DNA of 64,000 nucleotides from Alistipes sp. GTDB lineage: Bacteria; Bacteroidota; Bacteroidia; Bacteroidales; Rikenellaceae. The position numbers and the translations under genes were made by a program. The stretch covers positions 355 through 64,354 of the forward strand of contig JAFVSV010000067.1 in the NCBI GenBank assembly GCA_017503575.1. Reading direction: 5' to 3'. Below the pieces are notes generated by a model that saw only the letters and a list, made by a program, of their open reading frames with translations, was not told the origin of the DNA and did no database searches. Positions 2,046 through 49,591 of the stretch are shown here, in pieces (the first letter of the stretch is position 1; each line of letters opens with the position of its first letter).

Positions 2046-4079
2046 ATGGATAAACAAAATAAAAGACTCGAAATGGTAGCAGCAGACGATTGGTTGCTAC
2101 CCGTAGAGGGGGAGATAAACCGGCGTTACGACATGTATGTCAGCCGTTTAGCCAACATCGAGCAGGCGGCAGGGTCTATTGTCGACTATGCCAACGGCCA
2201 TCGCTATTTTGGCTGGCAACGCGACGAGGCGATGAAGGGTTGGTGGTTCAGAGAGTGGCTCCCCGAGGCCAAGGATGTCTACATCTTCGGCGACTTCAAC
2301 CACTGGCAGCGCACCGAGCTACGCTTGCAGCGTAACCGCGAGGGTGTATGGAGCATCTTCCTCCCCGACGCGATGTATGCCGAGAGACTTACCGACGGCT
2401 CGCTATACAAGATACATGTTCACGGCGAGAATGGCTGGCGCGACCGCATACCCGCCTACGCCAAGCGCGTGGTGCAGGATGACGCCACAAAGAACTACAC
2501 AGCGCAGTTTGTTATAGAGCGCCCCTACGACTGGAAGCACGACAACTTCAGAGCTCCCAAGGTGGGCGAGTTGCTCATCTACGAGGCACATGTGGGCATG
2601 GCCGTGGAGCGCGAGGGTGTGGGCACATATATCGAGTTCCGCGACGATGTGTTGCCACGCATCAAGGAGTTAGGCTACAACGCCGTGCAGCTTATGGCTG
2701 TGGCGGAGCACCCCTACTATGGCTCCTTCGGCTATCATGTATCGAGCCTCTTTGCGCCATCGTCACGCTTCGGCACGCCCGACGAGCTACGCTCGCTCAT
2801 AGACCGCGCCCACGAGCTCGGCATTGCCGTAATCATGGACCTTGTGCATGCACACTATGTCAAGAACTTCGACGAGGGCATCAACGAACTTGACGGCTCG
2901 AAGCACCACTACTCGAAGGAGGGCGGCGCAGGCTATCAGCAGTATTGGGACTCGATGATCTTCGACTACGGCAAGCGCGAGGTGGAGCATTTTCTACTAT
3001 CTAACGTCAAGTACTGGTTGGAGGAGTATCACTTTGATGGCTACCGCTTTGACGGAGTGACGTCGATGCTCTACCACCACCACGGATATGTCGACTTCGA
3101 CTGCCGCGAGCGCTTCTTCGACGAGGGCGTAAACCGCGATGCAATAGTATACTTAACGCTTGCTAACAAGCTAATACACGACCTGCGCCCCGATGCCATA
3201 ACCATCGCCGAGGATGTGAGTGGCATGCCTGGCACATGCGTGAAGCCCGACGAGGGCGGCATGGGCTTCGACTACCGTCTCGGCATGGCAATCCCCGACT
3301 ACTGGATAAAGCTACTCAAGGAGCAGAGCGACGAGGAGTGGAACATCTGGGAGATGTGGTCGGTGATGACAAACCGCCTACCCTCAGTACGCACCGTGGC
3401 GTATGCCGAGTCGCACGACCAAGCACTCGTGGGCGACAAGACGATAGCCTTCCGACTCATGGACAAGGAGATGTACTTCTCGATGGATAGAGCATCGGAG
3501 AACCTCATCATAGACCGCGGCATGGCGCTACACAAGATGATACGCCTGATGACCATCACCACAGGTGGCGAGGCATATCTCAACTTCATGGGCAACGAGT
3601 TTGGCCACCCCGAGTGGATAGACTTCCCACGCGAGGGTAACGGCTGGTCGTACAAGCATGCGCGACGTCAGTGGTCACTTGCCGAGAATGGCTTCCTCAG
3701 GTACTCCTATCTCAACGCCTTCGACAAGGCTATGATAGAGGTAGTTAAGGAGTATGGCGTCCTTGCCGATGGCTACCCCTACAACCACATGATGGATGAG
3801 CACAACAAGACGATGGTCTACTCACACAAGGGACTTCTCTTCGTGCTCAACTGGCACCCCACAGCATCTATCCCCGACTACGAGCTATGCGTGCCATGGC
3901 CGGGTAAGTACACCGTGGCGCTATCGTCGGATGAGAAGCGCTTTGGCGGCCATGAGCGTGCCGACATCACCTCGGAGCACTTCACGACAACACACAAGCG
4001 CGACGACGGCAGCGAGTACTACACCATAGCCATATATAACACCTCGCGCACAGCACTTGTACTGAAGCACGAAGAGTAA
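2046..4079 (+). CDS. glgB: 1,4-alpha-glucan branching enzyme (GH13_8)
   Basis: Motifs YEAHVGM, FGYHVS, FDGYRFDGVTSM, AEDVSG, YAESHDQ and NFMGNEFGHPEWIDFP. ATG 2046 preferred over TTG 2019. Confidence 0.95.
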   Translation: MDKQNKRLEMVAADDWLLPVEGEINRRYDMYVSRLANIEQAAGSIVDYANGHRYFGWQRDEAMKGWWFREWLPEAKDVYIFGDFNHWQRTELRLQRNREGVWSIFLPDAMYAERLTDGSLYKIHVHGENGWRDRIPAYAKRVVQDDATKNYTAQFVIERPYDWKHDNFRAPKVGELLIYEAHVGMAVEREGVGTYIEFRDDVLPRIKELGYNAVQLMAVAEHPYYGSFGYHVSSLFAPSSRFGTPDELRSLIDRAHELGIAVIMDLVHAHYVKNFDEGINELDGSKHHYSKEGGAGYQQYWDSMIFDYGKREVEHFLLSNVKYWLEEYHFDGYRFDGVTSMLYHHHGYVDFDCRERFFDEGVNRDAIVYLTLANKLIHDLRPDAITIAEDVSGMPGTCVKPDEGGMGFDYRLGMAIPDYWIKLLKEQSDEEWNIWEMWSVMTNRLPSVRTVAYAESHDQALVGDKTIAFRLMDKEMYFSMDRASENLIIDRGMALHKMIRLMTITTGGEAYLNFMGNEFGHPEWIDFPREGNGWSYKHARRQWSLAENGFLRYSYLNAFDKAMIEVVKEYGVLADGYPYNHMMDEHNKTMVYSHKGLLFVLNWHPTASIPDYELCVPWPGKYTVALSSDEKRFGGHERADITSEHFTTTHKRDDGSEYYTIAIYNTSRTALVLKHEE

Positions 4080-32285: not shown

Positions 32286-32447
32286 TGGGGATGACTAAAA
32301 AGTATTTTAGTCGTCCCCAATTTTTAGGAGGTTGAAGAAAAAGATGTAGTTTTAGGCATGCGAAGCCCGAAAAAGCGGAGTTTACTCGGCGTAAATGAGC
32401 ATTTTGAGGGCAAGCATAACGACAAAATAGACTTTTTATTCAGCCTC
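32286..32447. repeat. Compound palindromic repeat/MITE-like element, long copy
   Basis: Hairpin 32286-32319, then a 120-bp element with TIRs GAGGTTGAAGAAAAAG / CTTTTTATTCAGCCTC. Confidence 0.6.
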
Positions 32448-32529
32448 ATATTTATGTGATGTGGCACTCCGCAATAAGTTCAAATAAGATTTTTTTTACG
32501 CGAAAGGTTTTGAGATAATAAAATTTTAC

Positions 32530-32537
32530 TATCTTTG
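32530..32537 (+). promoter_or_regulatory. tRNA promoter -7 element
   Basis: TAtcTTTG with an upstream TTTG. Confidence 0.7.
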
Positions 32538-32557
32538 CACCGCAAAGCAGCAATGCT

Positions 32558-47097: not shown

Positions 47098-47412
47098 TTA
47101 TCTTTTATTCGACTTTCGAGTAAGGTCGGCCATTGTCGCCTTAACAACCTCGGACAAGTAATCACAATCATCGACATCGGTAATTAGGAAATACTCCTTT
47201 GCCCCGTCGTACGGTGGGCGTAGGATAACCTCACGCAGCATTGCTCGCACCGCCTCTGTCTGCTTGATATAGAGAGAGTTATCGCATATCAAGCCGAAGA
47301 CCATGCCATCACAATAGATGCAGTAGTCGCCCATCATCTTGCGCACGGTAATCACCCCAGCACCGGCACACTGGTCTACGATATATTGTACGAAATCAGT
47401 GTTACTCGACAT
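47098..47412 (-). CDS. TfoX/Sxy N-terminal domain protein
   Basis: RKMMGDYCIYCDGMVFGLICDNSLYIK and PPYDGAK. Confidence 0.85.
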   Translation of the reverse strand: MSSNTDFVQYIVDQCAGAGVITVRKMMGDYCIYCDGMVFGLICDNSLYIKQTEAVRAMLREVILRPPYDGAKEYFLITDVDDCDYLSEVVKATMADLTRKSNKR

Positions 47413-47432: not shown

Positions 47433-47488
47433 CAAAGTTACACATAATCTCGAAAACAAAAAAGAGAAAAAGCCGAAACTTTTTCTCT
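47433..47488 (-). repeat. Terminator+promoter junction repeat, copy 1
   Basis: AGAGAAAAAG/CTTTTTCTCT hairpin and TAacTTTG on the minus strand; homologous to 48688-48741. Confidence 0.65.
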
Positions 47489-47509
47489 TTCATACTCTTA
47501 ACTGCCTCC

Positions 47510-48145
47510 CTACTGCTCTGCCATTCGGCGGCCAGCATCGTAGGCTCTTTGCAAATCCTCCTCCCAATGAGCATCGCGCCAAGCATGCTTCGCCTCCTCG
47601 GAGAAGCTGCCAAGTTCGTAGTTGTCATATCTCGCCACCTGACATGTGTTATAGCCGATGATGCGTTCAGGCTCTCCGAGTGCCGTTGTGAGACACCACT
47701 CCATCGTGCCGAAATGGTTGCTGTTGTTGCGTTCGGGCGTGCCGTTCATAGTCTCGACAAGAAGCACAGGCATACGCTTTGGTGCGGTCAGGCTGTAATC
47801 GTTATACGAGAGCCACGGGAACGTCAGACGCTCCAAGAAGGCGCGCATCATGCCCGTAACCTCACCGAAATATATGGGTGAGCCTAATACTAAACCATCC
47901 GCCTCGGCAATATCGTCCAAGAGGGGTGAGAGTGCATCACGAAAGCGACAGACGTTCGATGCTTTGCCTTTGAGTTTACAAGCCATACACGACATACAAC
48001 CCTTATAATCAAGGTCGTATAGTCGCACGCTCTTCACCTCAACATCCTCGCCTACGGACTTCGCGCCCTCGGCCACACGCTGCAACAGCTGCGCCGTATT
48101 CATACTCTTTCGTGGACCACCATCCACAATCACAATCTTCTTCAT
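47510..48145 (-). CDS. Flavodoxin-like iron-sulfur flavoprotein / NAD(P)H-dependent FMN reductase
   Basis: DGGPRKSMNT, GCMSCMAC and GSPIYFG. Confidence 0.88.
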   Translation of the reverse strand: MKKIVIVDGGPRKSMNTAQLLQRVAEGAKSVGEDVEVKSVRLYDLDYKGCMSCMACKLKGKASNVCRFRDALSPLLDDIAEADGLVLGSPIYFGEVTGMMRAFLERLTFPWLSYNDYSLTAPKRMPVLLVETMNGTPERNNSNHFGTMEWCLTTALGEPERIIGYNTCQVARYDNYELGSFSEEAKHAWRDAHWEEDLQRAYDAGRRMAEQ

Positions 48146-48211
48146 ATAGCTCTGTATTTACTTCAAATTGTTCAAGATGTATGCCACTATTATTCCTCAA
48201 GTAGTTTGTGC

Positions 48212-48514
48212 TTATTCAACTACTTCAACATAAAAACTGACTGGTCGAAAGCCATCATTGCACGAGAGCATAGCCGAATGAGGGTTCTGCATCCACCCAT
48301 CAAAGAAATTACCCCCGCCCATAGCCAATTCGCGCACAAATGGCAACAGGGTCTGCCAAGCACTATCACACATACCCTCAGGCTTCACACAATTCTCCAC
48401 GATAAAGGTCTGCCCAAGACTCATATCGCAGGTATGTTCAATGGGGTTTTCGTATTTCGCCATAAGGTCTGCATACTGCGTAATACGCATCACAGTAATT
48501 TTTATCTTATTCAT
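48212..48514 (-). CDS. TIGR04076-family protein
   Basis: KPEGMCDSAW...SCNDGFRPVSF. Confidence 0.8.
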   Translation of the reverse strand: MNKIKITVMRITQYADLMAKYENPIEHTCDMSLGQTFIVENCVKPEGMCDSAWQTLLPFVRELAMGGGNFFDGWMQNPHSAMLSCNDGFRPVSFYVEVVE

Positions 48515-48687: not shown

Positions 48688-48741
48688 CAAAGGTACGCAT
48701 AATTCAAAAAAGAACAGAGAAAAAGCTGAAACTTTTTCTCT
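48688..48741 (-). repeat. Terminator+promoter junction repeat, copy 2
   Basis: Same hairpin as copy 1 plus TAccTTTG. Confidence 0.65.
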
Positions 48742-48798
48742 CCACTCGCAGTCCACACAGTTATAGCCCACTACGTTTACACCCGAAATCTGGTAATG
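48706..48798 (-). ncRNA. Candidate ~85-90-nt sRNA antisense to the divergent rod RNA
   Basis: TAtcTTTG at 48811-48804, no ORF, and an intrinsic terminator at 48741-48706. Complementary to 48986-49022. Confidence 0.5.
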
Positions 48799-48877
48799 TA
48801 TCGCAAAGATAAGAAATTCTCACATAAGAGTTTTCACAAATTCACGCTTTCTCAAAAAAATTCTATATCTTTGTAAT

Positions 48878-49135
48878 GGCTTACGATGAAAATCGTTAAG
48901 TCGATATATGGTTGTGCATTATTAACTATTCTTCTGCGACCCAAAACTTCGCAAATTTTGTCAACAGGAGGAACGGTGATAGGCGCCACATGCGATGTTA
49001 TATCGTCTGCACTACGTTTATGGCGTGGTGTGTGCTTGTATATACATCTGGCGTGGGTTGTCTGTCACTTATCCTTGTTGACGGGCAGCGAAGGCCTTGG
49101 GCGCGGGGTAAGCGGACAGTAGCCTGCGCTTTTTT
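48878..49135 (+). ncRNA. Candidate long structured RNA/leader (GAAA hairpin plus ~215-nt rod plus U-tract)
   Basis: TAtcTTTG at 48866-48873; hairpin 48878-48902; nested helices 48914-49129 with many G.U pairs; T6 at 49130-49135. Confidence 0.65.
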
Positions 49136-49591
49136 ATGGACTTATCCGGAAATAAAAGCCTATTAGATAGGGACTTGGTGGCATTCTTCGCTTCGCGCAC
49201 CTCACCACCCGAGGCACTCGCACTCGCTCGCCGCTGGGCATACGAAGTAGCCCATACCGATAGGGTCGTCATCAGCGGCTTCCACTCACCCATAGAGCGT
49301 GCCGTATTGGATATCCTCCTTGCCGAGGGGTGCTCGGTAGTAGTCACATTGGGGCGCTCACTATATCGCAGAGTACCTGCGCATCTGCAATCTCCTTTCG
49401 ACGAGGGCAGAGTGCTATTTGTATCGTTTAGAGATTATACACGCCCATCCCTCTCAAACTCGCAACTCCGCAACTGGCTCACCGCCGACCTTGCCACCGA
49501 AATCGTCTTTGCACCCTTCGACAGCCGCAGCCAGCTATCGACACTACATCACTCGCTCATCCACAGTCATATACGTTGCTCGCTACTTTAG
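49136..49591 (+). CDS. Stand-alone SLOG/DprA(Smf)-like domain protein
   Basis: GNKSLLDRDLVAFFASR...VVISGFHSPIERAVL...RN; lacks the SAM and HTH domains of full DprA. Confidence 0.7.
   Translation: MDLSGNKSLLDRDLVAFFASRTSPPEALALARRWAYEVAHTDRVVISGFHSPIERAVLDILLAEGCSVVVTLGRSLYRRVPAHLQSPFDEGRVLFVSFRDYTRPSLSNSQLRNWLTADLATEIVFAPFDSRSQLSTLHHSLIHSHIRCSLL

Follow-up and report, generated by a model that had tools for sequence, protein, structure and literature searches.

A covarying four-arm leader RNA of Bacteroidales, with a predicted terminator/antiterminator switch, probably gates a DprA-like SLOG gene in Alistipes

The window, i.e., the whole stretch of 64,000 nucleotides of an Alistipes sp. contig (JAFVSV010000067.1) that was analyzed, carries on its plus strand a four-arm leader RNA (48878-49135) located directly before a short DprA-like SLOG gene of 151 aa (49136-49591). 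Judged by sequence comparison, this RNA belongs to an uncatalogued leader family of Bacteroidales, without a match in Rfam. Folding analysis shows two conserved and mutually exclusive predicted folds, one of them a terminator, and it is likely that the leader gates the gene behind it. The reading preferred here, with a probability of about 0.6, is that the leader attenuates the transcription of the SLOG gene by choosing between the predicted terminator and rod, and that the divergent unit on its left is a passenger repeat and not a regulator.

TAnnTTTG is the -7 promoter box of Bacteroidetes. Two such boxes stand back to back at the locus, as reported in an earlier note on this DNA: TATCTTTG at 48866-48873 (plus strand, same position in homologues) for the leader, and its reverse complement at 48804-48811 (minus strand, retained in related units) for the divergent unit. 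This arrangement, with boxes 40-80 bases apart, occurs 43 times in the source genome. The divergent unit comprises a 56-base body (48742-48797), i.e., the small RNA (sRNA) of the earlier note, with a seed at 48770-48780, and a terminator hairpin (48706-48741), also a local repeat; its terminator-like stem (48741-48716) agrees with the terminator announced for this strand. Past the terminator, another -7 box (48688-48695) stands ahead of a cargo cassette (47510-48514) recognized by domain search, namely a TIGR04076 gene and a flavodoxin-like gene. After a second copy of the terminator repeat (47460-47491) come another -7 box and a gene of TfoX-N type (47098-47412), all these features being on the minus strand.

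The strong structure expected for the plus RNA is confirmed (z -5.55, 0 of 200 shuffles as good). From 5' to 3' the leader contains, according to folding, alignment, covariation and pairing boxes: a 5' hairpin (48878-48902); arm 1 (48907-48935); a loop hexamer CUUCGC (48947-48952), open in the 1:2 hairpin; arm 2, the antiterminator strand (48966-48992); an apical hairpin (48994-49048), variable, found in both folds and missing from short members; arm 3 (49051-49076), whose 5' end is a conserved GCGUGGG box; a loop hexamer GCGAAG (49088-49093), complementary to the first and situated within the terminal loop of the terminator hairpin; and arm 4, ending in CCUGCGC, with the U-run that abuts the start codon (49106-49135). 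The AUG that the earlier note placed in the apical loop does begin at 49020, its A being within the loop in the predicted fold.

The pairings 1:2, 2:3 and 3:4 are present and conserved, 3:4 lying before the U-run, and they give two alternative folds: either two hairpins (1:2, plus the 3:4 terminator before the U-run) or a single rod (2:3 and 1:4, the latter joining arm 4 to the 3' end of arm 1 and the following bases). Among 75 distinct family members, 74 could be scored by folding. The minimum of the whole RNA is the rod, with arm 3 paired to arm 2, in 68 of 74; the 3' half, folded alone, joins arm 3 to arm 4 immediately ahead of the U-run in 70 of 74. The rod is more stable than the two-hairpin fold by a median of 12.1 kcal/mol (15.6 at the window locus). 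Of the 70 members with the rod as their minimum, 69 have arm 2 already held by arm 1 in the nascent fold. The seven-base boxes of 3:4 pair in 515 of 518 cells, more than in any of 20,000 shuffles (a type of test inflated by kinship among the sequences), and double changes are found there in five distant members (L116, L127, L129, L117 and L137). The long 3:4 hairpin is missing from the output of a simple terminator scan.

The alignment of 38 close leaders has an identity of 69%, with double changes in 34 of 51 consensus pairs, and the internal loops of the rod are conserved in it. In the two-hairpin state of close leaders, CUU(C/G)GC is open in 44 of 44 and GC(G/C)AAG in 42 of 44. These complementary hexamers swap GC and CG jointly in 7 of 38 leaders, and they pair with each other in the rod. 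The apex is dispensable, since at most 8 bases are enclosed in 12 of 71 members.

A model built from the 38 close leaders matches 113 of 150 genus genomes, i.e., about three quarters, with up to eight copies. In the rest of the order it matches 23 of 150 genomes, where copies number up to seven, and it also recognizes a leader in 11 of 28 viral-contig loci. All 16 long SLOG loci supplied to the model contain the leader. No match to Rfam 15 was obtained at the leader, the window region and 20 homologue loci being scanned, and the matches of Bacteroidales-1 (RF01693) fall elsewhere than the leaders in five genomes. BLAST of the leader against annotated phages and plasmids gave no match. The leader is undescribed in the literature searched, although part of it may be among the 3161 candidates of the motif tables that supplement PMC8040213; the accessible portions of PMC7366714, PMC11697453, PMC13750123, PMC2864571 and PMC8040213 do not describe it, and a word search of the text of PMC12247911 returned neither leader, nor terminator, nor RNA. 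The earlier suggestion of an undescribed Bacteroidales riboregulator is thus upheld by a covarying family that extends across the order and has no Rfam match. The source genome has a second, distant leader copy (C19:16174-16409, L141) ahead of a lipoprotein-like ORF, and a weak model match on the minus strand of the window (32369-32556, E 0.015) is either a third, decayed leader or a chance hit.

The SLOG protein matches PF02481 with an E value of 6.8e-6, below the Pfam cut-off, and its residues 4-80 match the PADLOC PsyrA model (E 7e-10). Homologues number 393, and the nearest relatives of the gene are mostly from Alistipes or Rikenellaceae. A sequence search of the PDB gave no match, and neither did BLAST against annotated phages and plasmids. 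In distant copies of the leader, a same-strand ORF follows in 24 of the 28 that have full entries, and these genes are unrelated: lipoprotein-like ORFs, PD40 propellers, TerB, HTH proteins and response regulators, mostly without a Pfam family and with no common pathway. Read-through into the SLOG gene had been offered as one output of the locus; it is retained as the likely output of the leader, in the form of attenuation by alternative folds, and not as part of a toxin-antitoxin module. In many members (e.g., L112, L113, L135 and L138) a further hairpin, one arm of which is rich in G, comes after the U-run. In the window it lies at 49136-49160 and overlaps the first SLOG codons; 49141-49147 could also pair with part of arm 4 (49106-49112), and control at the level of translation might thereby be added.

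Several observations concern the surroundings of the leader. On two viral contigs (L155 and L157, leader at about 2826-3224) the leader-SLOG unit lies amid long ORFs whose translations, read by eye, are phage-tail-like; two divergent cargo genes precede the unit in L155. The unit looks mobile, and no recombinase is seen near these two viral-contig copies. In L097, L105 and L107 the flanks contain ORFs that resemble, also by eye, restriction-modification and phosphorothioation genes, i.e., surroundings like those of a defence hotspot. Back-to-back or tandem leader copies are found in L067 (5308-5547 and 5747-5999), L061 (5744-5999 and 6635-6860) and L110 (5088-5345 and 5599-5862), the first copy in L110 being followed by a SLOG start that is truncated and by a divergent unit that lacks a terminator. 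Fusions or deletions at short shared words inside the unit or the leader are seen in L059, L182, L194 and L036. The locus is prone to recombination, and the leaders combine different 5', apex and 3' types in mosaic fashion.

The divergent unit is distributed quite differently from the leader: 21 of 376 genus genomes have it, vs. 113 of 150 for the leader, and it stands beside 1 of the 16 SLOG loci. A conserved antisense partner, as first supposed, is therefore not supported. An intact leader accompanies 16 of the 29 distinct copies; 6 others end too near a contig edge, and 7 have no leader or a fused remnant. Mean identity is 88.6% for the body, 78.6% for the seed and 89.3% for the untranscribed promoter spacer; i.e., the body does not exceed the spacer in conservation, and the seed is the least conserved part of the body.

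The two strings quoted in the earlier note are present at 48753-48781 and 48986-49022, and their differences are indeed five, all C>T or A>G. The pairing over 29 consecutive nucleotides deduced from them is consecutive on the sRNA side, but the target bases are interrupted by bulges of 4, 2 and 2 bases. The longest unbroken Watson-Crick run between sRNA and leader is 11 bases, situated in the apical hairpin (49010-49020). Controls with shuffled sequences support the pairing in part only: the duplex of the 29-mer, which was picked post hoc, has an energy of -26.8 kcal/mol, equalled by 2 of 1000 shuffles against the 5' arm and by 4 of 500 against the whole leader, whereas the whole 60-base body is no better than shuffles (134 of 300). 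Exact 11-mer matches to the body number 39 in the genome, that of the leader included, and one 14-mer match lies elsewhere.

One alternative keeps the attenuator and gives the divergent RNA a role: in one lineage it would bind the nascent apex, block the zippering of the rod and lock termination, in the manner of pIP501. The analysis leaves this a small but real chance. The 11-base match ranks best among 36 apices. Relative to the common seed, that of the window has three altered positions; each of them matches the window's own leader, all three changes are specific to the window locus, and position 48773 changes together with 49014 (A/A at the window locus, G/G in L195 and run X6). The unit has its own promoter and terminator, and an 84-base contig of an RNA library spans 48716-48793, a weak indication in that it is strandless. 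On a transcript ending at 49022, binding of the sRNA is favourable (-10.1 kcal/mol); nevertheless 5 of 40 shuffles reach equally good binding, and by 49030 nothing of the advantage is left. At equilibrium the duplex (-26.6 kcal/mol) does not cover the costs of opening target and sRNA (25.8 and 10.1 kcal/mol), and co-folding of sRNA and leader left the switch unflipped in 9 of 9 pairs. Moreover, the complementarity expected to be conserved is not: the exact cognate match has 11 bases at the window locus and 4-8 in the other 15 pairs, and the cognate preference across the 16 pairs disappears once the window locus is removed (longest exact match, p 0.020 with it and 0.20 without; duplex energy, p 0.30 and 0.54; these values are generous, the pairs being related). 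L188 and L196 have 8-base matches on the opposite side of the apex, tied first among 36 apices, but L192, with the same seed, has no top-ranked match. One seed is found beside four apex types and one apex beside two seeds; the binding site is absent from the 12 of 71 family members with the shortest apex; and in L191, whose leader is nearly identical to that of the window, the unit lacks the terminator and the GTTATA box. As the origin of the window match, the sequences do not distinguish selection for pairing from the copying of a short piece between neighbours. The match is real at the window locus and is not kept in relatives, and the divergent sRNA is therefore likely not an antitoxin.

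That last point bears on the type I toxin-antitoxin module of the tisB/IstR-1 kind proposed in the earlier note, with the rod as toxin mRNA and the divergent RNA as antitoxin, which is now highly improbable. It would be suited by the divergent layout, by the structure of the RNA and by candidate frames in which 9-11 of 15 residues are hydrophobic. Nevertheless, none of the candidate frames for a hydrophobic peptide is conserved among the leaders compared, the perfect match is limited to 11 bases and the majority of leaders have no partner. The apex frame is in three registers (21, 13 and 11 of 45 leaders), with an ATG start in 3 of 45 and lengths of 2-40 aa. The two closest leaders have a stop at codon 3 of the 49020 frame and CTG in place of the ATG at 48990; the 48886 frame is open in these two and broken in the next three (L008, L059 and L060). 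Ribosome-controlled attenuation, in which a ribosome on a 5' open frame would melt arm 1 and so set the switch, is improbable. An ATG in the first 12 bases opens at least 60 codons in 11 of 45 leaders, that of the window included; such an early long frame is missing in the other 34, the peptides are unrelated (no conserved leader peptide among the 45), and the ATG sits within the 5' hairpin. It is also unlikely that the plus RNA is a free-standing rod, for which 3:4 would merely end the RNA and the refolded rod would act with a protein, possibly SLOG itself, supplied by leaky read-through. The rod is the most stable fold and has conserved internal loops, and leader and SLOG gene move as a pair into many settings, among them the spaces between long ORFs of viral contigs; a weak further indication is that the sole contig of the locus in metatranscriptome X12 falls inside the leader. 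Against it, most distant copies precede genes other than SLOG, and the orientation toward the downstream gene fits control in cis.

Four RNA runs, the best run sharing 0.28 of the words, gave contigs of related strains covering, at the level of pieces, the leader in three runs and the divergent unit in two. One contig ends at 49135 and another covers 48716-48793; contigs being strandless and their ends possibly graph branches, neither was counted as evidence.

The sequences on the left side suggest what the divergent unit is. Most probably it forms the head of an array of terminator-promoter repeats. The terminator repeat has 2 copies in the source genome (47460-47491 and 48716-48741) and 59 across the loci compared, and a -7 box lies just past it in 31 of the 59. 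In many genus genomes (L097, L098, L100, L102, L107 and L110) the repeat separates co-oriented, variable cargo genes left of the leader. The body is also found as the 3' tail of cargo genes and in places without leader, and the cargo varies among loci, fusions being present. A TGACA(A/G) box past the hairpin is seen in 22 of the 59 copies. Another origin, the body as a collapsed copy of leader arm 3, is no more than a lead: words are shared, but for the two best bodies the best alignments are reached by 15 of 100 and 12 of 100 shuffles. A looser test on mean scores gave 2 of 40 and 1 of 40 shuffles as good, and nhmmer, which returned no match with real or with shuffled 60-mers, is uninformative on this point.

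The course in the preferred reading would be as follows. Folding and covariation show that arm 1 can capture arm 2 immediately upon its synthesis, so that arm 3 stays available for arm 4 ahead of the U-run. The order of folding, rather than kinetics, points to termination as the default state. Kissing of the two hairpin loops may nucleate the conversion to the rod; if the rod formed before the polymerase reached the U-run, the terminator would be removed and the SLOG gene read through. At a guess, this race could be decided by a pause of the polymerase or by a protein acting on the conserved loop helix as binder or chaperone. On the other side, the divergent promoter, the 56-base body and the terminator would be the head module of a cassette array spread by recombination, and the 11-base match would be a local copy event or chance over a 7-base ancestral match. 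A bolder scheme is rather unlikely: kissing-loop attenuators would gate horizontally acquired surface and defence operons across the order, and one Alistipes lineage would have recruited a repeat-derived sRNA as the first trans-acting trigger, its hypervariable seed being re-tuned to the apex of each neighbouring leader.

Few cis-acting RNA switches are described in Bacteroidales, and the leader adds one ahead of accessory genes. Since its arms and its loop hexamers have been located to the single base, the switch is directly testable. Its trigger, if found, would reveal a signal turning on acquired genes in gut bacteria. In addition, the analysis removes a false type I toxin-antitoxin candidate.

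Attenuators of the trp type use four segments with 1:2, 2:3 and 3:4 pairings. The leader resembles them, and the expression platforms of riboswitches, in having exclusive anti-antiterminator, antiterminator and terminator pairings before a U-run and a gene. It differs from four-segment attenuators by arms of 25-30 bases and the added 1:4 closure into one rod; by complementary loop hexamers, without conserved leader peptide or known ligand; and by its presence in many copies per genome before unrelated genes. Compared with a riboswitch, it has a conserved loop helix, and the genes downstream have no common pathway.

Among systems with a small RNA, in the part of PMC4981023 consulted, convergent transcription inside the leader region yields RNAIII of pIP501, which controls the replication gene repR, and loop-loop pairing features in the work cited there. 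Both leaders combine a terminator/antiterminator, premature termination (predicted in the present case) and a nearby small RNA; unlike RNAIII as presented there, the divergent unit lies 80 bases upstream, points away, is partly complementary, rare and not covarying. According to the available portion of PMC2887945, the complementarity in tisB/IstR-1, shoB/OhsC and z3289/z3290 is perfect over about 20 bases and involves the 5' UTR of a toxin that is small and hydrophobic. The divergent small RNA beside a structured transcript is common to these pairs and to the present locus, which differs from them by only 11 perfect bases and the lack of a conserved peptide.

RteR, DonS, GibS, FopS and Bacteroidales-1 come from the same bacterial order as the leader. 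In the accessible parts of PMC7366714, PMC11697453, PMC13750123 and PMC2864571, FopS is multicopy and RteR acts on a mobile-element operon; FopS is there a single strand plus terminator, unlike the leader. Bacteroidales-1 has an Rfam entry (RF01693), and the leader, matching none, is distinct from it. Finally, PeSL are, in the portion of PMC2839356 at hand, promoter/stem-loop cassettes of T4-type phages. The repeat resembles them as a repeated terminator and promoter between co-oriented, variable small genes; it differs from what is described there by its location on a bacterial chromosome, by 1-4 copies per locus and by its anchoring at the leader-SLOG unit. Recombination at the repeat, which in PeSL goes with gene exchange and mini-circles, may also occur in the divergent-side array.
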